64,000 nt of DNA from an uncultured Flavobacteriales bacterium (GTDB lineage: Bacteria > Bacteroidota > Bacteroidia > Flavobacteriales_E > Vicingaceae), in contig OY970294.1 of the NCBI GenBank assembly GCA_963716125.1, forward strand, positions 3,585,396-3,649,395. The letters are read 5' to 3'. Shown one piece after another: positions 3,947-37,544 of the stretch (position 1 is its first letter; each line of letters opens with the position of its first letter). The notes below the pieces were generated by a model. It was not told where the DNA came from. It made no database searches and saw nothing but the letters and a program-made list of their open reading frames with translations. Position numbers and translations under genes: made by a program.

Positions 3947-4475
3947 TTATCTAGCTTCAACTCTTATTGTACCTGTTGCTATCAACATTTCTTCCAATTC
4001 GGATTCTGTTTGATCATGGTTATCATGAACATGCAACTCCATCACAAATTTATCATTGGTTGTTTCAGGATAAGGATTTCTTGCTTTAACACCTGGTAAA
4101 GTCCAGTTTCTTAAAAAGTAAGTCAATGCCAAACCATGAGCTGCCATCAAAACTGTAAACTCAAAAGTAATAGGAATGAAAGCAGGTAAATTATCCATTA
4201 ACGTAAAATTGGGTTTACCACCTACGTTCATAGGCCAATCCTGAATCATAAAATACCACATACCTGTAAGCGCTAAAATCAAGCCTACACATCCATATAT
4301 AAATGAAGTGATTGCAATTCTTGTTGGTTTTATACCGATGATAGGATCCAAACCATGAATTGGGAAAGGAGAAAACACATCTGCGTATATATATACCTTT
4401 TGATACCAAATCTTTTGCTCCTTTTAGCAAGATTTGTTCATCATCGTAGGTTGCGTATATAACTTTATCAGCCAT
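3947..4475 (-). CDS. actD: alternative complex III subunit ActD (DUF3341 family), reading frame interrupted by a 1-nt indel near 4382-4385
   Basis: The N-terminus MADKVIYATYDDEQILLKGAKDLVSKGIYI is in one frame (from 4475). The rest, (A)DVFSPFPIHGLDPIIGIKPTRIAITSFIYGCVGL..., is in the -1 frame (6-frame ORFs 4215..4475 and 3947..4378). Joined together they reproduce the conserved ActD pattern G-x-x-I-x-(D/E)-V-(F/Y)-(S/T)-PFP-(I/V)-HGLD. Confidence 0.6.
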
Positions 4476-13681: not shown

Positions 13682-13756
13682 TCGGGACGAGTGGATTCGA
13701 ACCACCGATCTCGCGCCCCCCAGACGCGCACTTTAACCGGACTAAGCTACGTCCCG
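13682..13756 (-). tRNA. tRNA-Pro (anticodon GGG), 75 nt, CCA not encoded
   Basis: Manual cloverleaf: acceptor CGGGACG/CGTCCCG with the bacterial tRNA-Pro hallmark C1:G72 and discriminator A73. D-stem GCTT/AAGT, anticodon stem CGCGT/GCGCG with loop CUGGGGG, T-stem GGTGG/CCACT with T-loop TTCGAAT. Confidence 0.9.
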
Positions 13757-14943: not shown

Positions 14944-17900
14944 ATGAAAAAATTATTTACTGTTTTAATTATTCTAGTTGGATTTATCACTTCTGCTAAT
15001 GCTCAAAATCCTGATTTGAAAGCTGTAGCAATTACATCTCCTACTTCAGGTTGTGATTTAAAGATTAATGAATTAGTTAAATTAAGAGTCCAAAATATTG
15101 GTAATACTACTATTAGTACTTATTATGCTTGTTACAACATAGATGGTGGTCCAGCCTTTTGTGATACGATTTATAGTGCGAGTATAATTCCCACAGCATT
15201 TTTAACGCATACATTTACAAATGGGGCAAATTTGTCTGCCATAAAATCCTATGATATAAAAGCTTGGGTTGAAGTAAGTGGAGATACGGCGCAATCTAAT
15301 GATACTACCACTTTTCAAGTGATCAATCAAGTTTTAACTTTCCCATTATTTGAACCATTTACATCATTTGCCTTAAATTCTTTAGGAAACTTTGATAAAG
15401 GTTATATAGGAACTCCAACTAGTACATCTGATTTTGCTTGGACTATTAAATCTACAGGCACTTCATTGACAGGACCCAGTATCAATCATACTGACACACC
15501 TGCAGTTTCTAGATTTTTAGCGGTTGACAATTCCAAAGGAAGTGTGAATAACTTTACTTATTTTACAAGTCCTTGTATAGATTTACAAGGGGTACCTATT
15601 CCTGCTTTAGAATACTGGTATCACATGTACGGTAATGATATGGGTAACTTATATATAGAAGCGAAAGGGAGTATATTTAATTCTTGGGTATTAATTGATT
15701 CAGTAATTGGAAAACAACAAACTAGTAAATTTCAGCCCTGGAGAAAAAAATCCGTCGGTTTAACTCAGTTTGCAGGTCAATTCGTCAATTTTAGATTTAA
15801 AGCACTTAAAACATCTGCCGGAAACAATGGAATGATTGCATTAGATGATATTGGTATCGTTTTCCCTGATTCAGGTCAAGCTCAATTAGCTGGTCCTGTT
15901 GGTTTGCAAGATGGTAGATGTAACTATAGCAATTGTGAGACTGTAAGGGTAAGGATTAAAAATGTAGGTAGTGATACGCTTAAATCTTTCACCGCTACTT
16001 ACCAAGTAGATGCTTTACCGATAGTCAGTCAAAATTTTTCGATTAACATTGCTCCATTTAAAACTAAAATAGTTACATTTACTCAATGCGCTGATTTATC
16101 AGCTTATAAAACATACAACATAGAATATAAAGTTTTAGTGAGTACTGATACAGATTCAACTGATAATGTATTTAATCAAACCATCACAAACATTTTACCA
16201 TCACCAGTTCCATTTTTTGAAACATTTGAAACGTTTACCACAGCCGGAAACACTAGTGGTAATCATGCAAAAGATTGGACTACAACAGTGGGAACCTATA
16301 AATGGACGGTAAAAAACGGTTCTACTCCATCTACAGGAACAGGACCAAGTAAAGATCATACCTTAAGTAATGCATCAGGCAAATACTTTTACACAGAAGC
16401 AGATAATGGATTCCCAGGTGAGGTTGCAACACTTACTTCTACTTGTTTAGATTTTAGAGCAGTTGTCGCTCCATATTTAAAGTATTGGTACCACCGTTTT
16501 GGTTTTGATATGGGTGATTTATATGTGGATGTAAATAAAGACGGTGAGTGGTTTACAGTAGATAGTTTAAAAGGAGAGCAACAGTCAACTAGTGGGGCTG
16601 CTTGGAAACAAAGAACCATCAGCTTGGATACAGCAAAACTTGCTGGTAAAAGTGCTAGATTGAGGTTTAGAGGACTCAGAGGGAATGGTTACGCAGGTGA
16701 TATGGCTTTAGATGATTTGTTCTTATATGATTTAACAGATTATGACGTAGGACCAGTTAATATGTCTAAACCAGATACTAATCAATATACTTGTTATACA
16801 AACAATCAAGAAGTTAAGGTAAGAATTCAAAACTTTGGAGCACTTCCATTAGATTTTACAGTTGATTCAGTTGATATTACTGTTTTTGTAACTAAAAATA
16901 GTTTGCCATGGGATACCGCGACTTATCGTTTAACTACTAACGCCTTTAATCCTGTAGCAGGAACACCATTGCAATCTGATAGATTTGCAGATGTAACATT
17001 TACAGGTTTTGATATGTCAACTATTGGAGATGATTACGGATTTACTATTGTTACCAACATGTTGTCTGGATTAGATACTGTGCCATTTACCGACACATTA
17101 AGACCAGCAAATATTATAACTAGAAGAACAGCAGGAACTGCTTTTGCAAGTTCAACTACAGTTTGTCAAGGAACGGCAGTTATTTTAAGTGATACTACTT
17201 TCTTTGGTCAAATTAAATGGCAAAGACAATCAGGCGCAAATTGGGTAGATGAATTTGGTCCAAATAGTGATTTTGAAACTTATGTTACTTTCCCAACTCA
17301 AGCAGTAAATGTTTATAGAGCTAAGGTTTGTGGAAATACTTTCTCAGCTCCAATAACTGTAAATGTAACTATAGTTCCTGCACCGGTAGTTAGAGGAGAT
17401 ACTAGTTGCGGACCCGGTATGCTAAATTTAACGTCAATTATACCGACAAATGCTCAAAATAATTTTTGGTATTCATCAATTAATGCAAGTGGTCCATTAT
17501 GGTTATCTGCTAATTATGACAGAAATTTAGCAGTAACTGATACATTTTATGTAGCTGCTAAAAAAGATTCATGTTTTTCTCCAAGAGTTCCAGTTATAGG
17601 TGTAGTTTCTCCAAATCCAAGAATTTCATTTAGTGGTTTGGATACTGTTATCTGTCCCGACACCTCTTATTACCTAAATGCAGGTGCACAATTAGGACTT
17701 AATCCTAACTATACTTGGAGAAGTAATGACTTAAATGTTAATGGAAGCACCTTGCAAACTATTGGTGTAGATCCTATTTATCTAAATCTGAAAACACGAT
17801 ATTACTATACGGTTGAAGTGAATACTTCCTTTGGTTGTCAAACTATATCTGATACAGCATGGGTTACAATAGATGATGATTCTTGTGGTGTAGGTTTTAG

Positions 17901-18162
17901 AGAGTATAATACATTAGGTGAAGTTAAATTGTACCCTAATCCAAACAATGGACAGTTTACAATTGAAATTAAAACTGATCAGTCTAATAATGCAGCTTTA
18001 CAAATCTTATCTATGCAAGGTAAGTTAGTGTATGAAGAAAACACTATAAATACACTAGGTTACACAAAAACAATTGACATTAGTAATCTTCCAAAAGGTA
18101 TTTATTATTTAAAATTAACTACCGACCTTGGAGTGGCTGTTGAAAAGATAGTCATCCAATAA
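14944..18162 (+). CDS. T9SS-secreted MAM-domain (meprin/A5/mu-like) surface protein with a type A C-terminal sorting domain
   Basis: 1072 aa with a signal peptide. It has repeated MAM-like blocks (…GMIALDDIGIV…, …GDMALDDLFLY…). The C-terminus (LYPNPNNGQFTIEI…GIYYLKLTTDLGVAVEKIVIQ) is a classic Por/T9SS CTD. Confidence 0.8.
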   Translation: MKKLFTVLIILVGFITSANAQNPDLKAVAITSPTSGCDLKINELVKLRVQNIGNTTISTYYACYNIDGGPAFCDTIYSASIIPTAFLTHTFTNGANLSAIKSYDIKAWVEVSGDTAQSNDTTTFQVINQVLTFPLFEPFTSFALNSLGNFDKGYIGTPTSTSDFAWTIKSTGTSLTGPSINHTDTPAVSRFLAVDNSKGSVNNFTYFTSPCIDLQGVPIPALEYWYHMYGNDMGNLYIEAKGSIFNSWVLIDSVIGKQQTSKFQPWRKKSVGLTQFAGQFVNFRFKALKTSAGNNGMIALDDIGIVFPDSGQAQLAGPVGLQDGRCNYSNCETVRVRIKNVGSDTLKSFTATYQVDALPIVSQNFSINIAPFKTKIVTFTQCADLSAYKTYNIEYKVLVSTDTDSTDNVFNQTITNILPSPVPFFETFETFTTAGNTSGNHAKDWTTTVGTYKWTVKNGSTPSTGTGPSKDHTLSNASGKYFYTEADNGFPGEVATLTSTCLDFRAVVAPYLKYWYHRFGFDMGDLYVDVNKDGEWFTVDSLKGEQQSTSGAAWKQRTISLDTAKLAGKSARLRFRGLRGNGYAGDMALDDLFLYDLTDYDVGPVNMSKPDTNQYTCYTNNQEVKVRIQNFGALPLDFTVDSVDITVFVTKNSLPWDTATYRLTTNAFNPVAGTPLQSDRFADVTFTGFDMSTIGDDYGFTIVTNMLSGLDTVPFTDTLRPANIITRRTAGTAFASSTTVCQGTAVILSDTTFFGQIKWQRQSGANWVDEFGPNSDFETYVTFPTQAVNVYRAKVCGNTFSAPITVNVTIVPAPVVRGDTSCGPGMLNLTSIIPTNAQNNFWYSSINASGPLWLSANYDRNLAVTDTFYVAAKKDSCFSPRVPVIGVVSPNPRISFSGLDTVICPDTSYYLNAGAQLGLNPNYTWRSNDLNVNGSTLQTIGVDPIYLNLKTRYYYTVEVNTSFGCQTISDTAWVTIDDDSCGVGFREYNTLGEVKLYPNPNNGQFTIEIKTDQSNNAALQILSMQGKLVYEENTINTLGYTKTIDISNLPKGIYYLKLTTDLGVAVEKIVIQ

Positions 18163-25497: not shown

Positions 25498-26260
25498 TTT
25501 GATAAAATTTTAATAATTCTTTTAGCATCCCGTCCTCTGTAAATGGTTTTGCTACTAAATTAATTTTCAAGCCATTATCAACAGCTATTTTCTCAGTAGA
25601 AGTTCCAATTACCGCAATTTTTTCATTGGTTAACTCTAAATTATATTTAGATAAATGCTGACAAAAATTCTCCACAGCTGATCCACTAAAAAATGTAATC
25701 CAATCCAATTGATGCTCTAAAATTGCTATAAAGTCTTCTTTACTATATTGAGGATCATAATTTTCATATATAGGCAACGTGATCACCTCTTTGCATTGTT
25801 CACTTAACAAATTTACGTATTCATTATTTGCTTTTGATGATTGAGGAATTAGAATTCGTTCATCACCGAAAATAGGGATTTGTTTTGCCAACATTTGTGC
25901 TGTGTATTCAATTGGGACAAAACTGCTTCTATATCCTACTTTTTCTAATGCAGCTTTTGTTTTTTCTCCTACAGTCGCAATTCGCAAATGAGTTAAAAAA
26001 TGAACTTTTATTTGAAACTTTTCTATGGTTTCAAAAAAGTAATTGACAGTATTAGCACTTGTAAAAACAATCCAATCAATATTTTCTAATAGATTGAGCT
26101 CTTTTTCTATATTTTTTTGATTTTCAATAGCTCGAATAGCTATCATTGGAAAACTGATAGCCTCTGCTCCTTTATTCTCTAATAATTTAATGAATGAATC
26201 AGTCTGATGCTCGGCTCTAGTTATTAGAAGTTTTTTATTTTGAAGCGGATTCACTGACAA
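25490..26260 (-). CDS. hemD: uroporphyrinogen-III synthase
   Basis: HemD-like fold and length, and its position between hemC and hemB in the heme cluster. Confidence 0.7.
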
Positions 26261-28424
26261 CTTCTTTAGTTTTCTCTTCTAATTCTTTTTTCAATTCAAT
26301 AGCTAATTCTCTAGCGATTTTTAAGTAATCCTTTGCTAAACCTTCTTTAAAGCTATTACAAACAAGACTTCCATCATCAGAAGCGAACATTCCTTCTATT
26401 AAAATTCTATCATTATCTACTTGAGCATAAGCAGCAATAGGATAATTACATCCTCCACCTAAAGCTATTAAAAATTCTCTTTCTGCAAATGTTGCTATTT
26501 GTGTAGCTTCATGATTATATTGTTTAACCAAATCCATTACAAAACCTTTCTCATCACGAATTTCTATTGCTAAAGCACCTTGAGCTACAGCAGGTAAAAC
26601 ATCTTTAGCAGGAAAAATATAATTTGCTTTATCTATCATTCCCAAACGATTGATGCCTGCATACGCTAATAAAATAGCATCATAGCCACCTTCCATCATC
26701 TTTTTGATTCTACTATCCAAGTTACCTTGTATAAATTTAGTTTCTATATCGGGTCTCAATTGCTTGAGTTGAATTTGTCGTCTTAAACTTCCAGTGCCAA
26801 TTACAGCTCCTTTCTTTAACTCCTCAAAAGTTTCTCCATTTCGTGAAATCAAAATATCACGAACATCTGCCCTTTCAGAAATTGCGGCTAATCTAAGTCC
26901 ACTTATATTTTCAATTGGCAAATCCTTAAAACTGTGTACTGCCATATCCACTTCTCCTTTCACCAATGCTCTTTGAATAGCAGTAGTAAATGCTCCCATT
27001 ACTTGTATATCTCCATCATCACCATTGGTTCTAATAACTTTAGTAATGAATTCATATTCAGGTTCAATTTTCTTTAATGCTTCTATTACATGATGAGTTT
27101 GTGTCAAAGCAAGTTTACTTCCTCTAGTACCAACAATCACTCGTTTTTTAGGAACACGAATCTTTGCATTTTCTAATCCAAATACTTTTTTAACGGTATT
27201 GATTGGATTGTCTTGTTCGTGCATTTTATTAGACATCTCATGAATTACTTCCATTGGTCGTTTAGAGATTTTACGAACCATGCGATGAGCAAATTTTTCT
27301 AATATTTCTATTTGAGTTGGATTCAAATCACCCATTTTAGGCAGTAACCAACTTAATTCTGTTTCTTTTATTTCTTGCAATGAATTCCAATAGGCTTCTA
27401 TCACTGGCGAAGCTTTTCTATTGTAATACCAATTAGTAAACTTTTGAACTTCTTCGTCTACCAATTCAGTAGCTTTAGGAATTTCATCATGTCTTTTAAG
27501 CAAACTCTCAAAAGTCATTTTTTTGATGTCATCCAAATCATAAAGAGTAATCCCTTCTACATTTTTTAAGCCAGGATTAAAGTTTCTTGGTAATCCAAAA
27601 TCAATTAATAATTTAGGTTCAGAAGCTTTAAAAGCAAACTGTGCTCTCGTACATTGGCTATCTGTTATCGCAGCTTCGCTCAATAAATTGACTTCTCCTT
27701 GAGTTCCACCAACCATTATATCTACCTGACCTACATATCTGTGTAAATATTTTATATCAATAGCTTCTCCATGCCACTCAGCTGCCATTTCAGTAGCTCG
27801 CTCTAAATTATGGCTAGCAACATATAATTTTTTGATTTTAGTTCTGTCTAAAATAGTAGCTACCAAATTAGCCATACTTCCTGTTCCCACTACTAATAGG
27901 GAACTATCTTCTAATTTATAGCCATGTTGCTCTATCAATTCAAACCCTACAGTAGCTAATGAAGCAGAATGTTTTCCAATATTAGTTTCTAACCTTACTC
28001 TTTTACCTGTATGAACGGCATGACGTATCATTTCGTCCAGCATAGGGCCAATAGTTTTGGTTTTTCTTGCTAAAGCTAAAGCTGATCTAATTTGACCAAC
28101 TATTTGATGCTCTCCAATAGCTTGTGATTCTAATCCTGCAGCAGTAGAAAATAAATTTCTAATAGCTATTTCAGTATCAGGTAAAACAGTGAGGTATTGA
28201 GAGAAATTTCCGAACTTTTTAAGGTAATTTTCTAATCCATAATAGTTGTCACCAAAGGCATATAAGGACAACCTATTACAAGTTGCAATTATGAAAACTT
28301 CCTTATATATTTTCTTGAGATCTTCCAGAGCTTGAATGGTCTGCTCATCGTTTAAGGCCATTTGCTCCCTAATTTCTATAGGTGCAAAACGGTGACTTAA
28401 CTCAATTCCAACTATTTTATTCAT
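26235..28424 (-). CDS. hemA/hemC: glutamyl-tRNA reductase (HemA) fused in frame with hydroxymethylbilane synthase (HemC)
   Basis: The N-terminal ~420 aa is HemA (…IIATCNRLSLY…, NAD-binding VVGTGSMANL). The C-terminal ~300 aa is porphobilinogen deaminase (…KRVIVGTRGSKLALTQT…). There is no stop codon or start between them, giving a single 729-aa ORF. Confidence 0.8.
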   Translation of the reverse strand: MNKIVGIELSHRFAPIEIREQMALNDEQTIQALEDLKKIYKEVFIIATCNRLSLYAFGDNYYGLENYLKKFGNFSQYLTVLPDTEIAIRNLFSTAAGLESQAIGEHQIVGQIRSALALARKTKTIGPMLDEMIRHAVHTGKRVRLETNIGKHSASLATVGFELIEQHGYKLEDSSLLVVGTGSMANLVATILDRTKIKKLYVASHNLERATEMAAEWHGEAIDIKYLHRYVGQVDIMVGGTQGEVNLLSEAAITDSQCTRAQFAFKASEPKLLIDFGLPRNFNPGLKNVEGITLYDLDDIKKMTFESLLKRHDEIPKATELVDEEVQKFTNWYYNRKASPVIEAYWNSLQEIKETELSWLLPKMGDLNPTQIEILEKFAHRMVRKISKRPMEVIHEMSNKMHEQDNPINTVKKVFGLENAKIRVPKKRVIVGTRGSKLALTQTHHVIEALKKIEPEYEFITKVIRTNGDDGDIQVMGAFTTAIQRALVKGEVDMAVHSFKDLPIENISGLRLAAISERADVRDILISRNGETFEELKKGAVIGTGSLRRQIQLKQLRPDIETKFIQGNLDSRIKKMMEGGYDAILLAYAGINRLGMIDKANYIFPAKDVLPAVAQGALAIEIRDEKGFVMDLVKQYNHEATQIATFAEREFLIALGGGCNYPIAAYAQVDNDRILIEGMFASDDGSLVCNSFKEGLAKDYLKIARELAIELKKELEEKTKEVVSESASK

Positions 28425-28743: not shown

Positions 28744-31368
28744 TTGATAATGAAAGAAATTGCCAAAAAAGAAGCCATTGGCTTTAACACCACTTCGGAG
28801 ATGGAAACAACTGAAAAAAGAAATTCAAACAGGAAAACATACAGCTATGAAGAAGCTGTAAAGGGTGCTACTGAATACTTCAAAAATGATGAATTAGCAG
28901 CCAATGTTTGGATCAACAAATATGCTTTGAAAGATTCAGCTGGAAACATCTATGAAAACTCTCCAAATCAAATGCACGAGAAGATTAGCATCTGAAATAG
29001 CAAGAGTGGAGAAAAAATATCCGAACTCATATAGTTATGAAGAAATATTTGCAGTATTAAAAGACTTCAAATATATTGTTCCTCAAGGTGGCCCAATGAC
29101 AGGAATTGGCAATGATTTTCAAGTTGCTTCTTTATCAAATTGTTTTGTAATTGGCAATAAAGGAGTAGCAGATTCTTATGGTGGCGTAATGAAAATTGAT
29201 GAAGAACAGGTTCAATTAATGAAGAGACGTGGAGGAGTTGGCCATGATCTTTCTCATATTCGACCAAAAGGCAGTCCAGTAATGAATAGTGCATTGACCT
29301 CTACAGGTATTGTACCGTTTATGGAAAGATATTCTAATTCTACTAGAGAGGTGGCTCAAGATGGTAGAAGAGGTGCATTAATGCTTTCAGGTTTCAATAA
29401 AACATCCTGATGCAGAAGGATTTATTGACGCAAAAATGGATGGTACCAAAGTAACAGGCGCAAATGTATCTGTTAAGATTGATGATGAATTTATGCGTTC
29501 TGTAAAAGGAAACACAAAATACGAACAACAATATCCTATAGAATCAAAAGAACCTAACTTTCAAAAAAGAAATTGATGCAAAAAAGGTTTGGGATAAAAT
29601 CATTCACAATGCATGGAAATCTGCTGAGCCAGGTATTTTATTTTGGGATACAGTAATTAATGAATCTATTCCTGATTGTTATGCAGATTTAGGATTTAAA
29701 ACAATTTCTACCAATCCTTGCGGCGAAATTCCATTATGTCCTTATGATAGCTGTAGATTATTAGCCATTAACTTATTTAGTTATGTAGAAAATCCCTTTA
29801 CAGAAAATGCAAAATTTGATATGCCTCTATTTAAGAAGCATACCGAAATGGCACAAAGAATTATGGATGATATTGTTGATTTAGAAATGGAAAAAATCGA
29901 TGCTATCATCAAAAAAATAGAAGATGATCCAGAAGTTTTAGATGTGAAACGAACAGAATTAAACCTTTGGAAAAAAATTAAACAAAAATGTATTGAAGGT
30001 AGAAGAACCGGAGTTGGTATTACTGCTGAAGGTGATATGCTAGCAGCTTTAGGTTTAAGATATGGAACTGACGAAGCACTTAATTTCTCTGTGAAAGTTC
30101 ACAAAAACTTAGCGTTATCAGCTTATAGATCTTCTGTGGATATGGCTAGAGATAGAAATTCTTTTCCTATTTACGATTCTATTCGTGAAGAGAAAAACCC
30201 AATGATCAACGTATTAAAGATGCTGATCCTGCACTTGTATGAAGACATGACTAAATACGGTAGAAGAAATATTGCATTATTGACTATTGCTCCTACAGGT
30301 ACAACTTCTATTATGACGCAGACTACTTCAGGAATTGAGCCAGTATTTATGGTTTCTTACAAAAGAAGAAAAAAGGTAAATCCTAACGATAAAAATAGCA
30401 GAGTTGACTTTGTTGACGAAGTTGGTGATTCTTGGGAAGAGTACAATGTGTTTCACCACAATTTTAAAACTTGGATGGAAGCAAACGGTTACGACTTAAA
30501 TGAAGTAGCCACTATGACTCAAGATGAGTTGAACGCAATTATTGCTAAAAGTCCTTACTACAAAGCTACTGCCAATGATGTAGATTGGGTAAACAAAGTG
30601 AAAATGCAAGGAGCTGTTCAAAAATGGATTGATCACTCTATTAGTGTAACTGTAAATGTACCAAACGACTGCAAAGAAGAAATGGTAAGCCAAATTTACC
30701 TTACAGGATGGGAAAGTGGTTGTAAAGGAATTACTGTTTACAGAGATGGTTCAAGAAGTGGTGTTTTAATTGCTAATGATGACAATAATAAAGTAAACGA
30801 AGCTATTTCTTTCACAGAAACTCAAGCTCCAAAGCGTCCAAAAACATTGGAAGCTGAAATTGTAAAATTCAATAACAATGCTGAAAAGTGGATTGCGATT
30901 GTAGGTTTATTTGAAGGAAGACCTTATGAAATTTTTACAGGGAAAGCAGAAGATTCATTCTCTATACTTTCTCAAGTAGAAAAAGGATGGGTAATACGAA
31001 ACAGAACTGAAGACGGTAGAGCTAGATACGACTTTCAATACGAAGATAAAGATGGTTACAAAACTACCATTGAAGGTTTATCAAGAACATTTAACCAAGA
31101 ATATTGGAACTATGCTAAATTAATTTCAGGCGTATTGCGTCACGGAATGCCAATTGCTTTTGTAGTAGATATGGTTTCAAACTTACACTTGAGCGAAGAA
31201 AGCTTAAACACTTGGAAAAATGGCGTGGTAAGAGCATTAAAGAAATATGTTGCAGATGGCACCAAAGTGTCCGGTCAAATATGCCCAGGTTGTAACGAAG
31301 AAGAAGGATTAGTATTTAAAGAAGGCTGTATTACCTGCGAAAGCTGTGGATATAGCAAGTGCGGATAA
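28744..31368 (+). pseudogene. nrdJ: class II (adenosylcobalamin-dependent) ribonucleotide reductase NrdJ, interrupted by three frameshifts (near 28975, 29400 and 29573)
   Basis: Three consecutive ORFs in different frames (28744..28995, 28952..29410, an untracked stretch 29402..29575, and 29821..31368) together translate to one ~870-aa class II RNR (…RRGGVGHDLSHIRPKG…, …RRGALMLS|VSIKHPDAEGFI…, …TNPCGEIPLCPYDSC…). The third shift is an extra A in the A6 run (TTTCAAAAAAGAAATTGA). Confidence 0.8.
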
Positions 31369-31471: not shown

Positions 31472-32530
31472 TTATTTCCTTTCATCCATTCGCTTAAGAA
31501 TATAGTCCAAGATTTCTTGGTCTTTTTCTTTTGCCCAATGGTCTAAAATTAATAAGTAGGCAATTTCTGAATCGTTGTCAAACAGTTGATTCAAAGCCAA
31601 AAGCCTTTCTTTAGAATTTTTACTATTTAACGATTCATATGTTTCTAATAAATTAGCTGCTTTTGCTTTGGAAACTATATGGGGGTATTTTATTTCGTCT
31701 ACAATTACAGCATTAATACTAAAAAGTTGCAACAAACCTTTTGATTGAGTCATTTTAACCTCTATCGAATCACTTAATTTTTCTTTTCCAATTAGATACA
31801 AGTCTATCGATGAATAATTACCTATAGCATTAATAACAATGCTTTGTAATGAAGGGATGATTATTCTTTCTTTATATTTTCTGCCAATTTCAGTATGAAT
31901 TTTAATAATAGAGTCAGGTTTTGGATTATACCAACATTTAATTTTCAATTTGATATCTTCACCGTCTTTTGAGAGTATAGATAAACTTATCAATTGTTCC
32001 TCTTGTCTGATGTTATATGTAATCAATGAATCGTGAGGAGGAATAATATGTGTTCCCTCTTTGTAAAGACTGTCTGTAGATATTTTATTGAGAAAGATAT
32101 TATAAAGAATTCCAATTTCACCAGGTGCTATAATTGCAACTTTTGATAATTTACCTAATTCACTTTGAGATGAAAAATAGTCAAGAATTCGATATATATT
32201 GTCTGTATATTCTTGGTCAGAGATATTTTTTTCTTTCAGAGATGTTTTCATTGAGTATTCAATAAACTGTTCACAGGTTCCTCCAAATTCTTTTAAAAAT
32301 TCAATTTGGTTTTGGGCTGTGGAAAATAGTCTTGATAGTTCTTCTTTAAAAAATAATTTATTCTTTTTGGATAAACATTTTCTTAAAGATTTATCAGCCT
32401 TATTTTCTGGAATTTGATTTAAATCTTTGTAACAATCACAATATTCATTAGATAATCGGTTCACATTGATTTGACCAATTGATAAAAATGGTAAAGTCAA
32501 AAATATTGTAAAAATTAATTGTCTTTTCAT
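31472..32530 (-). CDS. secreted hypothetical protein
   Basis: 352-aa ORF with an N-terminal signal peptide (MKRQLIFTIFLTLPFLSIGQ). No family recognised. Confidence 0.5.
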   Translation of the reverse strand: MKRQLIFTIFLTLPFLSIGQINVNRLSNEYCDCYKDLNQIPENKADKSLRKCLSKKNKLFFKEELSRLFSTAQNQIEFLKEFGGTCEQFIEYSMKTSLKEKNISDQEYTDNIYRILDYFSSQSELGKLSKVAIIAPGEIGILYNIFLNKISTDSLYKEGTHIIPPHDSLITYNIRQEEQLISLSILSKDGEDIKLKIKCWYNPKPDSIIKIHTEIGRKYKERIIIPSLQSIVINAIGNYSSIDLYLIGKEKLSDSIEVKMTQSKGLLQLFSINAVIVDEIKYPHIVSKAKAANLLETYESLNSKNSKERLLALNQLFDNDSEIAYLLILDHWAKEKDQEILDYILKRMDERK

Positions 32531-32544
32531 TTTCTATAATTGCA

Positions 32545-32608
32545 CCTCTTTGTTCCCGCACGATTGCATCGCGTGTTTAAATTCAAAAAACAATTTAGAT
32601 AAATTTAT
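32545..32608 (+). repeat. REP-like element copy A: hairpin CGCACGAT-TGC-ATCGCGTG plus ~40 bp conserved flank (…GTGTTTAAATTCAAAAAACAATTTAGATAAATTT)
   Basis: About 65 bp nearly identical to copy B at 35586..35648, in the same orientation. The core palindrome is shared with copy C (inverted) next to the RAYT gene. Confidence 0.7.
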
Positions 32609-32686
32609 TCTACAATTTTTATAAATCTGTCTTTATTTTCAATTTAATAATTGAAGAAATTATTAAGCATTTTAAACGTACAAAGC

Positions 32687-32977
32687 TTAATTAAAAATAT
32701 TTTCTAAGTCTAGACTTCCAACAATAGCAACTATTTCAACCATTCCATCTAAAAATGTATAATAAATACTATCTGAACCACAAGGACAACATCTGCAATC
32801 TTTACTAATATTATCTACTGATTTGAAAGATAGAGGTCTTTGAGCTATTAGTTCAAAATATTCAAAAAATGTATTGAAATATTTATCAGCTTATGTCATT
32901 CCAAAACTGCGGATTCCAAATTGATGTATTCTAATTAAGTCTGCCTCTGCTTCATTACTAATTCTATAGTTTGGCAT
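32687..32977 (-). pseudogene. parE: ParE/RelE-family toxin inactivated by an in-frame TAA (codon 29) at 32891..32893
   Basis: The minus-strand ATG at 32977 overlaps the last codons of parD. The translation is MPNYRISNEAEADLIRIHQFGIRSFGMT*ADKYFNTFFEYFELIAQRPLSFKSVDNISKDCRCCPCGSDSIYYTFLDGMVEIVAIVGSLDLENIFN. It aligns with ParE1 (…WGVDQAEQY…GxRxLxxGSHxxFYRV…V.VLHQRMD). The stop replaces the conserved Gln (CAA->TAA). Confidence 0.7.
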
Positions 32978-33209
32978 CGTACAAAGCTTTAGATTTTGCT
33001 AATATTTCAGAACTTGTATTAGTTGTAAATCCACTTTTTTTTGCTCTGTCTAGTTTAGTCGCCAACCAATCTACTCGTCTTTGCTGATTTCTTGCCTGTC
33101 TTATCAAATCATTGACCAATTCACTTTTGCTTGCATATTCATTACTGCTAACTTGTGATTTTAACCATTCATCATTTGGCTCTGTAAAAGAAATACTTTG
33201 TCGTCCCAT
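32964..33209 (-). CDS. parD: ParD-family (RHH/CopG-like) type II antitoxin
   Basis: 81 aa. MGRQSISFTEPNDEWLKSQVSSNEYASKSELVNDLIRQARNQQ… closely parallels the ParD1 pattern MGKNTSFVLDEHYSAFIDGEIAAGRYRSASEVIRSALRLLEDRE…. Confidence 0.75.
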   Translation of the reverse strand: MGRQSISFTEPNDEWLKSQVSSNEYASKSELVNDLIRQARNQQRRVDWLATKLDRAKKSGFTTNTSSEILAKSKALYDAKL

Positions 33210-33348
33210 TATAATAGTTTTGATGTAAATTTACACCTATTATTAAAAATTTCAAGATTTGGAAGATTATTTGATTGAGAAAGAGCTAATGATGTAATAG
33301 TGTTTTTTTTATTTTATTACTATTAATAGTCGTATAAATCAATTAATT

Positions 33349-34257
33349 CTAATATTTAGCAGCCTTTATTTTTTTTCCAAAAAGCATTTGTTGGTGTTCC
33401 TTGGATAATTCATTATCCCAACTTAATAAATACTCTGTAAGCGGACTAATATTAAGAGAATCAAGATTTCGATATGGGAATGCCATAATCTCATTTGGGA
33501 AATTTTTCATTACAAAGTCTTTCTTTTTTCTAGCTTTTCTATTTTTATCAAAAGGCGAAATATATAGATCTAATGCTCCAAATAGATGTAAGAATTCATG
33601 AGCAATTACTGATGGATTTTTAAAACTAACTACTGAATATTCAGGATTATTATTGCTACCAATATGCAATGCTACAGAAATCTCGTCAGTATAATAATTA
33701 TTAATAAAATACATTAGGGCTACATTATCAGTCTTATGAATATCTCTAATCCTAGCTATTAATCTTTCTCTGTCTTTAGGGTTTATCTTAGTTCTTGTAA
33801 TGGTGGATGTGTCTGGTCCGTATATCTGCAAAGCTTTTTTTCCAACCTTATCTGCCCATCTGTCTATATTTCTCGTATTTATACCTGTAGAAGTGAAAAG
33901 ACTAGCAGAAAGAGTTTTCCTTGGTAGATTACTTTCAATAGGTATTATTCTTTTTGAATCTTGATGAAAATCTAATTCTATGTCAAGGTTAATATTCCTT
34001 TCTTTCGCTTGTCTCTCAAGCCAATATATAGCTTTATTTATTGAATCAGTTGTTGATGAAATATCAAAAGTAGACCAAGAGTTCGTATATCTTGAATCAA
34101 CAAAAATAGCATATAATATCACTTTTTCAGTTAGTTTCTTGCATACATTATTATTTACGGTTGAGATATGAGCTTCATTTCCATAGTGTTTTTGAAACAT
34201 TTGACAAGATGAAAAAAGGAAAATGAATGCGGAAGTAATAATTTTAAGTCTTATCAT
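33349..34257 (-). CDS. lipoprotein with an HExxH zinc-metallopeptidase-like motif (VIAHEFLHLFGALDLY)
   Basis: 302 aa with a lipoprotein signal (LFSSCQMF) and a single HEFLH motif followed by GxLDLY. The family was not recognised. Confidence 0.5.
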   Translation of the reverse strand: MIRLKIITSAFIFLFSSCQMFQKHYGNEAHISTVNNNVCKKLTEKVILYAIFVDSRYTNSWSTFDISSTTDSINKAIYWLERQAKERNINLDIELDFHQDSKRIIPIESNLPRKTLSASLFTSTGINTRNIDRWADKVGKKALQIYGPDTSTITRTKINPKDRERLIARIRDIHKTDNVALMYFINNYYTDEISVALHIGSNNNPEYSVVSFKNPSVIAHEFLHLFGALDLYISPFDKNRKARKKKDFVMKNFPNEIMAFPYRNLDSLNISPLTEYLLSWDNELSKEHQQMLFGKKIKAAKY

Positions 34258-34427
34258 TATTTAATAAACGTACTAAATTATATTTTATTTAATCATTAAG
34301 TTGTATCAAGGCTAAATTTGAAAAGTAAGCATTTCAGGATTTAAACTTATCAAAATAGTTACTAATTTGAATCAGTTTACAACCCAAAAATTTATTGCTA
34401 TTTTGCAGATACATTTGGCGTAAAACT

Positions 34428-35525
34428 TTATTGAATCTCGGGTCTAAATCTATCAAATGATTTCCAATATTTGTCTTTGTAAATATCAAAATCAACACTC
34501 AGTCTGTTTTTGTAATAAGATTTAATATTAGTTAGAACTTTTGAAGGCAATCTAAAATCCTTGCAAGCAAAATAGATATATCTTACATTATCAGCAGTTT
34601 GCCTTCCAACATTTAAATATCCTTCTGAATCCTTAAGTTCAAACATTAATTCATCTTCAAATTTATTCATTAATTCATACGTTTCTTTATCAGGCATTCC
34701 ATTCTCATTGCCTTTGAATTTGATCTCGATAGTCAGAATCCACGGATGAGAAGCTTTGCTGTCCCAGTTAAGAAGAGCGGAGTTAACAATTGCTAATAAA
34801 GGTTTGCCATTATTTAATGTTGCTTCAAGTGAATTGTAACTGTCGTTTTCTGTATTATATCTTGTTCCTTCGTACTTTTCAATAAATTCTTTCTGTCTCC
34901 AAATAAGATAATCTTTAAGCTTCTCAATTGGAATTAATTCTTTTTCAGCCTTATCTTTTCCAACAATCTTCATGTTATCAATAGTTGTCACAGAATTTAA
35001 TTCACCTAAATAATTATCCATGAAGATATAAATCCCGTTAATTATTGGTTCTTTTAAACCTTCTGTGTAATCTGCATGAATGACAGTAATATCTATTTCA
35101 TCGGGAAGCTCAGAATTATCATTAGAATAAAATGATAAATTCTCCTTACTAAATTTCAAATCGCCCATACTGATATATACATCGTTTATATCGAGGGCTG
35201 GTTTTAATTCTGTAAATCTCCAATTATTAATCTTAGGGGCAGATTGAGCCAGTTCTTCAACAAATACTATGTTTTTATAAATCCCATCGGCAGTTAAAAT
35301 TAATTCTGCAGTATTGTTGTCTAACATGCCGGCTAAAAAACAGTATCCGTCTCTAAGTTGATTTAGTTTTGATGCCAATTTATTAAAGAAATCGCGTTCA
35401 ATACTTTCTTGATTCTTTATAACTTTGAAGAAATCCTTCTCATTATTCTGAAACCAAATCCAAAAGTCTTTATTTGATTTTATGGGTGTTTCTTTTGCAC
35501 CTCTTAAGTTTCTAAATAGCCCCAT
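34428..35525 (-). CDS. hypothetical cytoplasmic protein
   Basis: 365-aa ORF with no signal peptide and no recognised motif. Confidence 0.5.
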   Translation of the reverse strand: MGLFRNLRGAKETPIKSNKDFWIWFQNNEKDFFKVIKNQESIERDFFNKLASKLNQLRDGYCFLAGMLDNNTAELILTADGIYKNIVFVEELAQSAPKINNWRFTELKPALDINDVYISMGDLKFSKENLSFYSNDNSELPDEIDITVIHADYTEGLKEPIINGIYIFMDNYLGELNSVTTIDNMKIVGKDKAEKELIPIEKLKDYLIWRQKEFIEKYEGTRYNTENDSYNSLEATLNNGKPLLAIVNSALLNWDSKASHPWILTIEIKFKGNENGMPDKETYELMNKFEDELMFELKDSEGYLNVGRQTADNVRYIYFACKDFRLPSKVLTNIKSYYKNRLSVDFDIYKDKYWKSFDRFRPEIQ

Positions 35526-35585
35526 TCAATTAAGTTTTTTATTTGTCTAATGTTTTTAGCCTTGCCTACAATAATTATTTAACAA

Positions 35586-35648
35586 CCTCTGTTCCCGCGC
35601 GATTGCATCGCGTGTTTAAATTCAAAAAACAATTTAGTTAAATTTTCT
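35586..35648 (+). repeat. REP-like element copy B (hairpin CGCGAT-TGC-ATCGCG plus conserved flank), 5' of the RAYT gene
   Basis: Near-identical to copy A. It lies 62 bp upstream of the RAYT start. Confidence 0.7.
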
Positions 35649-35709
35649 ACTCAAAGATATCTATTTTGTATCAATGAATTAGTTAATTTAGATAGCAAAT
35701 TATTTAGGT

Positions 35710-36273
35710 ATGAGCAGAAATTACAAGTTCAAAAATCCTAAGGGGCTTTACTTTGTCAGCTTTGCAGTAGTAAAATGGTTGGATGTTTTTACAAGGAATG
35801 AGTATAAAGATGTAATGCTTGATAGTTTAAGGTTTTGCCAAAAAGAAAAAGGATTAGAAATAATTGCTTGGTGTATCATGACCAATCATGTTCATTTAAT
35901 CTTTAGAACCACCAACGATTTTAAACCTGAACAAGTTTTAGGAGACATTAAAAGATTTACGAGCAAAAAAATTGTAAAAGCTATAGTAAATAATCCAAAA
36001 GAGAGTAGAAAAGAAAATTTACTACAAGTATTTAAAGCAGCAGCTAATGAATCATCCAATGTTAGAGATTATCAATTTTGGAGACATGACAATAAACCAA
36101 TAGAATTATGGAGTAATAAAGTAATTGCTCAAAAAGTAAAATACATTCATCAAAATCCAGTAGAAGCCGGATATGTTTACTATGCTAAAGACTATATATA
36201 CAGCAGCGCAGCAGATTATGCTGGCGAAAAAGGATTAATTGATAATATTATTTTAGCAGAGTTAAATTTATAA
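35710..36273 (+). mobile_element. REP-associated tyrosine transposase (RAYT; IS200/IS605 TnpA-like HUH Y1 transposase)
   Basis: 187 aa with the HUH motif (IMTNHVHLIF) and a C-terminal catalytic-Tyr region (AGYVYYAKDYIYSS). It is flanked by inverted REP hairpins (copies B and C). Confidence 0.75.
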
Positions 36274-36280
36274 CCAATTA

Positions 36281-36306
36281 ATCACGCGATGCAATCGCGC
36301 GAGAAC
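36281..36306 (-). repeat. REP-like element copy C (inverted orientation), 8 bp after the RAYT stop
   Basis: ATCACGCGATGCAATCGCGCGAGAAC is the reverse complement of GTTCTCGCGCGATTGCATCGCGTGAT. This matches the core of copies A and B. Confidence 0.7.
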
Positions 36307-36385
36307 GGTGATTTTATAATGTCTGATTTCATGTTCTAAAGTTATTCATTTTATTATTTCCATAAGCTTTCAAATAAATATCTAA

Positions 36386-36862
36386 TTATCTGTTAATTAA
36401 ACATTTTAACTTATCCTGAAGAAATTTTGGGGGATAAGTGTGTAATGTCCCTATAGCTAATAAAAACCAACCTGAAATAGAAAGAATTTGGTTTGGAACT
36501 GTTTGTGTCACATCCATTCCATCCATTCGATACGTTATTTCTTCTACAAATCTTGGCATTAAAGAAATTATACAAGCAACTAAACCTAATAGTGCGATTA
36601 AAATTGAAAAGTAGAAATGAGTTCTCCACCAAGTATTTAGTCGGCTATTAAGTCGGATTGGAAGTCCAACAAGTCCACACACAATTACTGTCAGTAAAGA
36701 AAGAAGAATGGCTAAAATTGGATGGAAAAATGTCAATCCAACGAAATTGATCAATCCACCTTGATAGTCGAACATTGCAAATAGCATATACAGAATAAAA
36801 GTCCCACCGATTGTCAGTCCAACTTGAAAAAGAATCGTCACTAATATGATTACTCTGGTCAA
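36386..36862 (-). CDS. hypothetical integral membrane protein
   Basis: 158-aa ORF with about four predicted TM helices. Confidence 0.4.
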   Translation of the reverse strand: MTRVIILVTILFQVGLTIGGTFILYMLFAMFDYQGGLINFVGLTFFHPILAILLSLLTVIVCGLVGLPIRLNSRLNTWWRTHFYFSILIALLGLVACIISLMPRFVEEITYRMDGMDVTQTVPNQILSISGWFLLAIGTLHTYPPKFLQDKLKCLINR

Positions 36863-37098
36863 TTTAGTTTTTTGTTTTAAATGTTCAATAACAATTGTAC
36901 AACAGCACCTTATAAAGGTATTTAATCCCCCAAAAATAACTATAAATTTTAAATTATAACATTAGAATCATTCATATTTAGGGTACTATGCAATTTTAAA
37001 CCTTTCTTAACAGTTAGTAACGGATAAGTATAAACCCCTCCTCTTTACTACATTTTATAATGACCTCAGAATAATTAAATTTTAAGGATATTTGTACT

Positions 37099-37290
37099 AT
37101 GAAAAAAACAACCCTTCTTTTTTGTTTTCTACTTTCATTGATGTTTATTTTCGTTTCATGCAATAGTACCAATGGAACTTATAAACGAATGAAAAGTAAG
37201 AAAAAAGGGTGCGATTGCCCTGGTTGGACTTTTAATAATCCTGATTCCTTTCCTTCTTCAAAGATGACCTTCAACAATTTTGATTGTTAA
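37099..37290 (+). CDS. small hypothetical lipoprotein (63 aa)
   Basis: Signal peptide plus lipobox (LMFIFVSCNS). It is short and unsupported otherwise. Confidence 0.25.
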   Translation: MKKTTLLFCFLLSLMFIFVSCNSTNGTYKRMKSKKKGCDCPGWTFNNPDSFPSSKMTFNNFDC

Positions 37291-37381
37291 TCTATATTCA
37301 TTTAAAATAATCCTATATTTTTCAATGAGTCTTGACTTTTCATTTCTTTTTTCTTCTGGCTTCGGTAAATCATTTTTAAAA

Positions 37382-37403
37382 AATATTATCTTACAATAAT
37401 ATT
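37382..37403. promoter_or_regulatory. candidate Fur-box-like operator (AATATTAT-CTTACA-ATAATATT, perfect 8-6-8 inverted repeat) upstream of feoAB
   Basis: AT-rich perfect dyad ~140 bp upstream of the feoA start. feoAB is a canonical Fur target. Confidence 0.35.
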
Positions 37404-37544
37404 CTATAATATTAACTTTAAGATTTTATAAAATGAATCATATCAGAAACTCACATTCGTTAATCTTTTAAAAAAAGATCTCAAATTATTAGGATAGAAT
37501 TATCCAAAAAGCCTACTTTAGCTATTTAGAATCAATCTAAATAA

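Follow-up and report, generated by a model that had tools for sequence, protein, structure and literature searches.

Can a ParD/ParE toxin-antitoxin module still act on its host when the reading frame of its toxin is interrupted by a stop codon, and if it cannot, what has become of the antitoxin that is left? The parDE locus described here lies on the minus strand of a 64-kb stretch of DNA that was analysed as a whole (the window), and it raises this question since its toxin frame can be followed over the full length of a ParE protein save for one TAA, which stands where the family has a glutamine. Such a stop codon might be an error of the assembly, a codon that is recoded or read through at a low level, or a genuine loss of the toxin. 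We argue below that the last of these explanations accounts best for what is seen in the window and in its relatives.

The interrupted toxin frame and its family

The parE frame opens with 28 codons that read MPNYRISNEAEADLIRIHQFGIRSFGMT, meets TAA at 32893..32891, and then continues through 67 sense codons (ADKYF...LENIFN) to its natural TAA at 32689..32687. In this respect our translation agrees with the sequence-only reading, which had described a ParE of full length apart from the one stop codon, 67 further codons to the natural end and a conserved Gln at the position of the stop. The conservation of that residue is indeed nearly complete, as Gln is found at codon 29 in 198 of 200 intact homologues, and among 75 genome loci the codon is CAA in 63 and CAG in 12. 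Comparison with parE orthologues, which the same reading had called for, places CAA at codon 29 in each of the four closest relatives, so that one C-to-T change on the coding strand suffices to explain the stop; on the plus strand, position 32893 has A in place of a presumed ancestral G. The frame differs from its homologues at a second critical place, since codon 89, which encodes Gln in 199 of 200 homologues and is CAA in the closest relatives, reads CTA (Leu) in the window copy. The proposal that the toxin was knocked out by a single nonsense codon thus stands as far as the one C-to-T stop is concerned, but not in its implication that this is the sole lesion. By alignment, parE carries two lesions, one in each of its two near-invariant Gln codons. 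Between codons 30 and 78 the frame contains no in-frame ATG, GTG or TTG, the next one lying at codon 79, and the C-terminal two-thirds of the toxin could therefore not be made by ordinary initiation. Re-initiation downstream of the stop, or a toxin split into two polypeptides, was rejected on this ground.

With the Gln restored, the protein scores 31.7 bits against the Pfam family PF05016 (ParE_toxin; cut-off 23), while the 67-residue remnant on its own reaches 14.3 bits; an NCBIfam search with the parE sequence gave no match. The repaired protein has 258 homologues in the database, 94-110 residues long, many of which are named as ParE or RelE/ParE toxins of Bacteroidota; the best of them is 90% identical, and intact proteins at this level of identity measure 96-97 residues. 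A profile of this subfamily matches the solved ParE2 of Vibrio cholerae (7R5A, E=1.6e-12) and ParE1 of Caulobacter (3KXE, E=4e-11), in both of which the residue aligned to codon 29 is likewise Gln (WGKEQ and WGVEQ, respectively). The fold was modelled on the intact homologue P0001, which is 90% identical, and not on the broken frame of the window. The resulting AlphaFold2 model (pLDDT 84.5) comprises beta1 (residues 4-6), alpha1 (8-25), alpha2 (27-46), four strands and alpha3 (88-95), and thus displays the N-terminal helical hairpin on an antiparallel beta-sheet by which the ParE fold is recognised. In a Foldseek search of the PDB its top matches are all ParE structures (8C24, 7R5A and 3KXE, TM 0.80-0.84), with RelE, YoeB and YafQ ranking below them. 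In sequence, fold and operon layout the toxin gene therefore belongs to the ParE family, and what it lacks is the open frame for a full-length toxin, interrupted as it is by TAA at codon 29 and altered by Q89L besides; it is a ParE pseudogene.

The antitoxin gene presents the opposite picture. As had been read from the sequence, parD is intact and encodes 81 residues. Taken as a single sequence, the protein falls just short of the cut-offs of both relevant models, with 19.4 bits (E=1.5e-3) against a cut-off of 21 for PF03693 and 34.9 bits (E=1.2e-8) against 46.2 for TIGR02606, and its residues 3-45 give weak matches of the NikR/CopG type. The profile of its subfamily, on the other hand, matches the solved antitoxins ParD2 (7B22, E=2e-5) and ParD1 (3KXE_C, E=2.4e-3), and a profile search retrieves at least 8000 homologous clusters, many of them named ParD or CopG and many with a precomputed PF03693 match. 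Every invariant column of the subfamily alignment is retained in the window copy, which we accordingly predict to be a ribbon-helix-helix antitoxin of the ParD family.

The two genes are small, adjacent and co-oriented, with the antitoxin first and its stop overlapping the start of the toxin, which is the layout of a type II operon. The ATG of parE at 32977 does lie within the end of parD, as the earlier reading had it, and the resulting overlap of 14 nt recurs in the intact relatives L082 and L087. Upstream of parD lies the block GGTGTAAATTTACATCAA with the perfect palindrome TGTAAATTTACA inside it. At the equivalent place, L082, L087, L083 and L002 have this block too; it is thus kept between loci whose synonymous sites are saturated, and a motif of this type precedes parD in 58 of 76 genome loci. 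A promoter-like site shares part of its sequence with the palindrome; sigma-70-like matches in the region number 8, where 6.6 are expected from shuffled sequence, so that such a match is weak when taken alone. These features together suggest that the block is a putative ParD operator overlapping the promoter. A terminator scan found no site resembling an intrinsic terminator. All in all, the locus may be assigned, from its sequence, to the chromosomal type II ParD/ParE toxin-antitoxin modules, as a member of a large Bacteroidota subfamily (Table 1).

Table 1. Features of the parDE locus, in window coordinates.
Feature	Position	Strand	Description	Basis
parD	33209..32964	minus	ATG to TAG, 81 aa, intact; predicted ribbon-helix-helix antitoxin gene	ORF listing
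parE pseudogene	32977..32687	minus	96-codon full-length frame broken at codon 29	translation
Translatable 5' part of parE	32977..32891	minus	28 codons, beta1 and alpha1 only
Premature stop TAA, parE codon 29	32893..32891	minus	in place of the conserved CAA (Gln)
3' parE remnant, untranslated	32890..32687	minus	67 codons: alpha2, beta-sheet, C-terminal helix
Second lesion, parE codon 89	32713..32711	minus	CTA (Leu)	homologue alignment
parD stop / parE start overlap	32964..32977	minus	14 nt, ATGCCAAACTATAG; typical of translational coupling
Conserved block GGTGTAAATTTACATCAA	33237..33220	minus	about 20 nt upstream of the parD ATG
Perfect palindrome TGTAAATTTACA	33224-33235	minus	inside the GGTGTAAATTTACATCAA block; putative ParD operator
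Promoter-like site	33228..33255	minus	TTGAAA, 16 nt, TAAATT; second hexamer inside the palindrome	consensus match

Structurally characterised systems offer one frame of reference. ParD2/ParE2 of V. cholerae (7R5A, 7B22), ParD1/ParE1 of C. crescentus (3KXE) and ParDE1 of M. tuberculosis (8C24) have the same gene order, an antitoxin gene that comes first and overlaps that of the toxin, and share the ParE fold; identity to them is, however, only about 27-32%, and their toxin frames are not broken as that of the window is. The window subfamily also has conserved motifs of its own, a CxCG block and GxQD near the C-terminus, which set it apart from the solved ParDE systems. Far closer are the intact Bacteroidota homologues P0001 (90% identical), P0002, P0003, L082 and L087, together with L002 from a Flavobacteriales metagenome-assembled genome (MAG; 80%). 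These share with the window the 81-residue ParD, the 14-nt overlap, a ParE of 96-97 residues and the upstream GGTGTAAATTTACATCAA block, and differ from it in having CAA at codons 29 and 89 and unrelated genomic neighbours.

One further feature of the locus concerns the limits of parE. The 12-bp sequence CGTACAAAGCTT, which reads AAGCTTTGTACG on the coding strand, is perfectly repeated in direct orientation at 32677-32688 and 32978-32989 and brackets parE exactly, one copy ending just before the ATG and the other starting inside the natural stop. The 64 kb contain just these two copies (0.29 expected), and recombination between them would delete parE precisely. The repeat was considered as a family feature and dismissed, as it is absent from relatives.

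Authenticity and age of the stop codon

A stop codon in a sequence obtained by assembly may, in principle, simply be wrong, in which case the true genome would have CAA and the module would be intact. The window gives some cause for such a concern, given that its assembly has local problems: the ribonucleotide reductase gene at 28744-31368 contains five single-base indels and 17 substitutions. At parE, on the contrary, a Logan contig of a near-identical strain from run ERR12040027 (L001), produced by another assembler, shows 100% identity with the window across 3061 nt, TAA included, although it may come from the same biological sample and the population may be polymorphic. Between the window and two other contigs of that run there are SNPs and indels, which argues that the agreement of L001 does not merely reflect the copying of one consensus sequence. 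The change in parE is, moreover, a base substitution unlike the indel-type errors of the reductase gene, and it is accompanied within the same gene by the second non-conservative change, Q89L. An assembly error at the TAA thus appears unlikely, and we would give only a very slight chance to the module being intact in the true genome. A genuine TAA could still be decoded as Gln through an alternative genetic code or a suppressor tRNA, and it may be held in favour of this idea that the stop falls exactly at a conserved Gln. Yet TAA terminates 38 of the 49 window ORFs of at least 150 codons, parE itself ends on TAA where its homologues end, and the window holds no suppressor tRNA, its sole tRNA being tRNA-Pro. 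In view of the long ORFs that end on TAA and of this lone tRNA, recoding was rejected and has, in our estimation, practically no chance of being correct. An Rfam scan of the window returned nothing except the tRNA at 13682-13756.

The comparison with run ERR12040027 also brought to light differences elsewhere in the window. The large-subunit gene of ribonucleotide reductase (28744-31368, plus strand) is split into at least four frames in the window, while two contigs of that run, L089 and L090, together encode an intact reductase ORF of 871 residues. Relative to these contigs the window has +1 insertions at 28981, 29390 and 29556, a compensating -1/+1 pair at 30206/30234 and the 17 substitutions, of which 11 are synonymous; the split may reflect an allele that has diverged and is decaying, or a consensus sequence of poor local quality. 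Over the remaining stretch of approximately 16 kb that was compared, few differences are found (6 in L089 outside the reductase gene, 0 in L001). Conversely, a MAM-domain protein that ends in a type IX secretion sorting tail (14944-18162, plus strand, 1072 residues) is intact in the window and split into 776 and 265 residues in L089 by a one-base difference at 15740-15741, which may go back to variation between strains or to a mistake in either assembly.

If the stop is genuine, the question of its age arises. The dN/dS ratio of the window parE against its relatives is 0.02-0.13, to be set beside 0.04-0.06 for intact pairs and 0.09-0.13 for parD, all of these values being of poor resolution as synonymous sites are near saturation (dS 0.5-2.9). 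That the ratio of the window parE lies near that of intact pairs suggests that the gene spent most of its history under constraint and that the knock-out is recent. Recent inactivation of the toxin, leaving an orphan antitoxin, was one of the two outcomes envisaged in the sequence-only reading, and it has gained from the analysis: a near-invariant Gln was lost by one transition, the stop is present in a second assembly, the ratio is low, and both the invariant residues of ParD and the upstream palindrome have been kept. In all likelihood, then, parE is a recent toxin pseudogene that has left ParD without a partner.

Interrupted toxin genes in relatives and the question of readthrough

In all 80 relatives from species-representative genomes parE is uninterrupted and has Gln at codon 29; the best ParE match among the GTDB species representatives is 80% identical. 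Metagenome contigs were scanned for a stop or Trp at codon 29, between FG.. and ADKYF, this being the one codon covered by the scan. Six true relatives were returned, with TGA in L091, a single TAG allele in L093 and L096, TAA in L103 and again in L107, and TGG (Trp) in L095. In all six the frames are otherwise open, ParD is intact and the palindrome is present. Each copy with a stop at codon 29 is closer to some intact relative than to any other stop-bearing copy, which indicates that the stop events were independent. When the 36 columns of the alignment that are conserved to at least 95% were considered, each of the six unusual copies proved to have at least one change, and 129 of 200 intact copies had none; such an excess of changes at conserved columns would fit relaxed constraint.

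How common such alleles are within a population can be judged from contigs that were found through ParD, whose sampling is independent of the state of parE. The population of ParD P0141 includes 24 contigs with an intact ParE, which have CAG where L093 and L096 have TAG; apart from this codon their ParE matches that of L093 and L096 residue for residue, and across parDE the DNA is approximately 99% identical. In the P0142 population, 3 of 23 contigs have a one-base frameshift in parE near codon 38 with ParD intact, and two further populations ascertained through ParD, of 22 and 23 contigs, are intact throughout. Knock-outs of the toxin beside an intact antitoxin thus appear, as far as these contigs tell, to be sporadic minority alleles that are not confined to codon 29. 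The frameshift near codon 38 is seen in L124 (933-1220) and two similar contigs of a Balneola-like population whose other 20 contigs encode ParE intact, the ParD sequence being the same throughout. A different kind of change is found on a Balneolaceae chromosome (L064), where a second ParE copy (1743-1994) has a 7-residue internal deletion right after ADKYF, and an intact ParE copy is present as well (4001-4273).

These parallels bear on the other outcome that had been envisaged, namely that the stop is leaky or even programmed, such that readthrough at a low level supplies a little full-length ParE and the module remains functional in an attenuated form. This would explain why stops recur at codon 29 with the downstream frame still open: at least five independent lineages have one there, all three stop codons are represented, the TGA of L091 lies two mutational steps away from CAA or CAG, and L093 and L096 share their TAG allele across two slightly diverged strains. 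The occurrence of five lineages at exactly codon 29, with frames otherwise open, was not predicted beforehand; it counts against the pseudogene explanation and is only partly controlled, by a scan of codon 29 alone. Set against the ParD clusters of the family, which number at least 8000, five cases nevertheless amount to a very small fraction. What is known of the individual cases points the same way, in that the nearest relatives of the stop-bearing copies are intact, the L093 allele is a minority beside its 24 intact counterparts, the six unusual copies have all changed at conserved columns, and a knock-out by frameshift occurs at another position. Codons 29 and 89 are, besides, the only CAR codons conserved across the ParE family and hence the sites permanently open to nonsense mutation by a C-to-T change. 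Bacteria terminate efficiently at UAA when a G follows, which we count against leakiness. Taking into account that TAA is the usual terminator in the window, that Q89L is present in the same gene and that the other stops are minority alleles beside intact relatives, we consider readthrough highly improbable. A hot spot or programmed stop was likewise set aside in favour of ordinary recurrent loss, which better explains the nearest neighbours of the stop-bearing copies, their changes at conserved sites, the size of the family and the contigs ascertained through ParD. Codon 29 has at most a very remote claim to being the preferred switch-off point of this ParE subfamily, as distinct from a random target. 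Were it selected as such, some regulatory function or a weakened toxicity might survive in the 28-residue peptide with alpha1 or by way of a leaky stop, and a change from CAA to TAA and back might serve as a reversible one-base toggle of toxin activity.

Genomic surroundings and fate of the module

The module sits in a stretch of lower GC content, from approximately 31500 to 37500, with values of 0.27-0.30 versus 0.33-0.35; that of the window as a whole is 32%. Its neighbours encode a Band_7/SPFH protein, a 302-residue protein without a Pfam family, a DUF695 protein and an IS200-like Y1 transposase, and a type IX secretion sorting domain in a neighbouring gene marks the host as a member of the Bacteroidota. 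The stretch that holds parDE, the DUF695 gene, the 302-residue ORF and the Y1 transposase (35710-36273, plus strand, included) may be an accessory islet. In relatives the module is found in unrelated contexts, beside transposases and genes for Fic, HigB, PIN and HamA proteins, and this variety would fit a mobile module. An association with phages was rejected, with one ParD relative only in IMG/VR. Elsewhere in the window, a single ORF of 729 residues (26235-28424, minus strand) fuses glutamyl-tRNA reductase (HemA) and porphobilinogen deaminase (HemC) domains and leads a cluster of genes for haem biosynthesis.

Decay that begins with the toxin and leaves an orphan antitoxin is already well described. 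A review (PMC7354431) records a parDE locus of Caulobacter whose parE has become a pseudogene and whose ParD is an orphan, and also cites the Shigella toxin YacB, truncated or inactivated by a frameshift; 2253 orphan antitoxins were counted across 259 Klebsiella genomes, and both degraded toxin-antitoxin pairs and an anti-addiction role have been discussed for Klebsiella pneumoniae (PMC7192599). The Caulobacter locus resembles that of the window in family and outcome, a toxin inactivated and a ParD without a partner, and differs in organism and subfamily. In the Klebsiella and Shigella cases, too, toxins are lost or truncated and antitoxins persist, but these concern other toxin families in enterobacterial hosts and were described at the level of surveys.

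The course of events at the window locus can be pictured as follows. A C-to-T transition would have turned the conserved CAA of Gln-29 into TAA, and ribosomes entering parE from the overlapping parD stop would terminate after 28 residues, which correspond to beta1 and alpha1. Alpha2, the beta-sheet and the C-terminal helix would never be made, and toxicity would presumably be lost with them. Q89L may have arisen once the constraint on the toxin had lapsed, or the toxin may have been attenuated stepwise. The antitoxin gene, its start, the overlap and the putative palindromic operator/promoter region have been left untouched, so that ParD is probably still produced and, as an orphan antitoxin, probably still represses its own promoter by binding the palindrome. 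A module in this state could no longer addict the cell. It may now be drifting towards loss, or it may persist for the sake of its ParD, which could neutralise related ParE toxins on their entry into the cell.

The latter alternative, in which the locus is selected as an orphan antitoxin with an anti-addiction role or as a transcriptional regulator, would add to the pseudogene explanation and not compete with it. It can draw on the fully intact state of ParD and its putative operator, on the fact that the modules of this family lie beside transposases and defence or toxin genes, such that related toxins are likely to be met, and on the discussion of anti-addiction in both of the papers cited (PMC7354431 and PMC7192599). 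On the other side, neither a second ParD nor another ParE of the subfamily was found in the 64-kb window, the basis for judging selection on ParD after the knock-out is one near-identical strain, and recency alone accounts for an intact antitoxin. Selective retention of this kind is conceivable, but we rather doubt it.

In an annotation of this genome, we argue, the locus is best entered as parD together with a pseudogene of parE, and it should be left out of any count of active toxin-antitoxin or defence modules. Beyond this correct annotation its significance is small, and the recurrence of stops at codon 29 merits a systematic survey only for those already engaged in the study of toxin-antitoxin decay. 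Repaired and native alleles would nevertheless make a convenient natural pair with which to address toxicity and the roles of the two conserved Gln residues. For the very large Bacteroidota ParDE subfamily, the window locus represents one more well-documented instance of decay that starts with the toxin, alongside four metagenomic parallels and one case of a frameshift.
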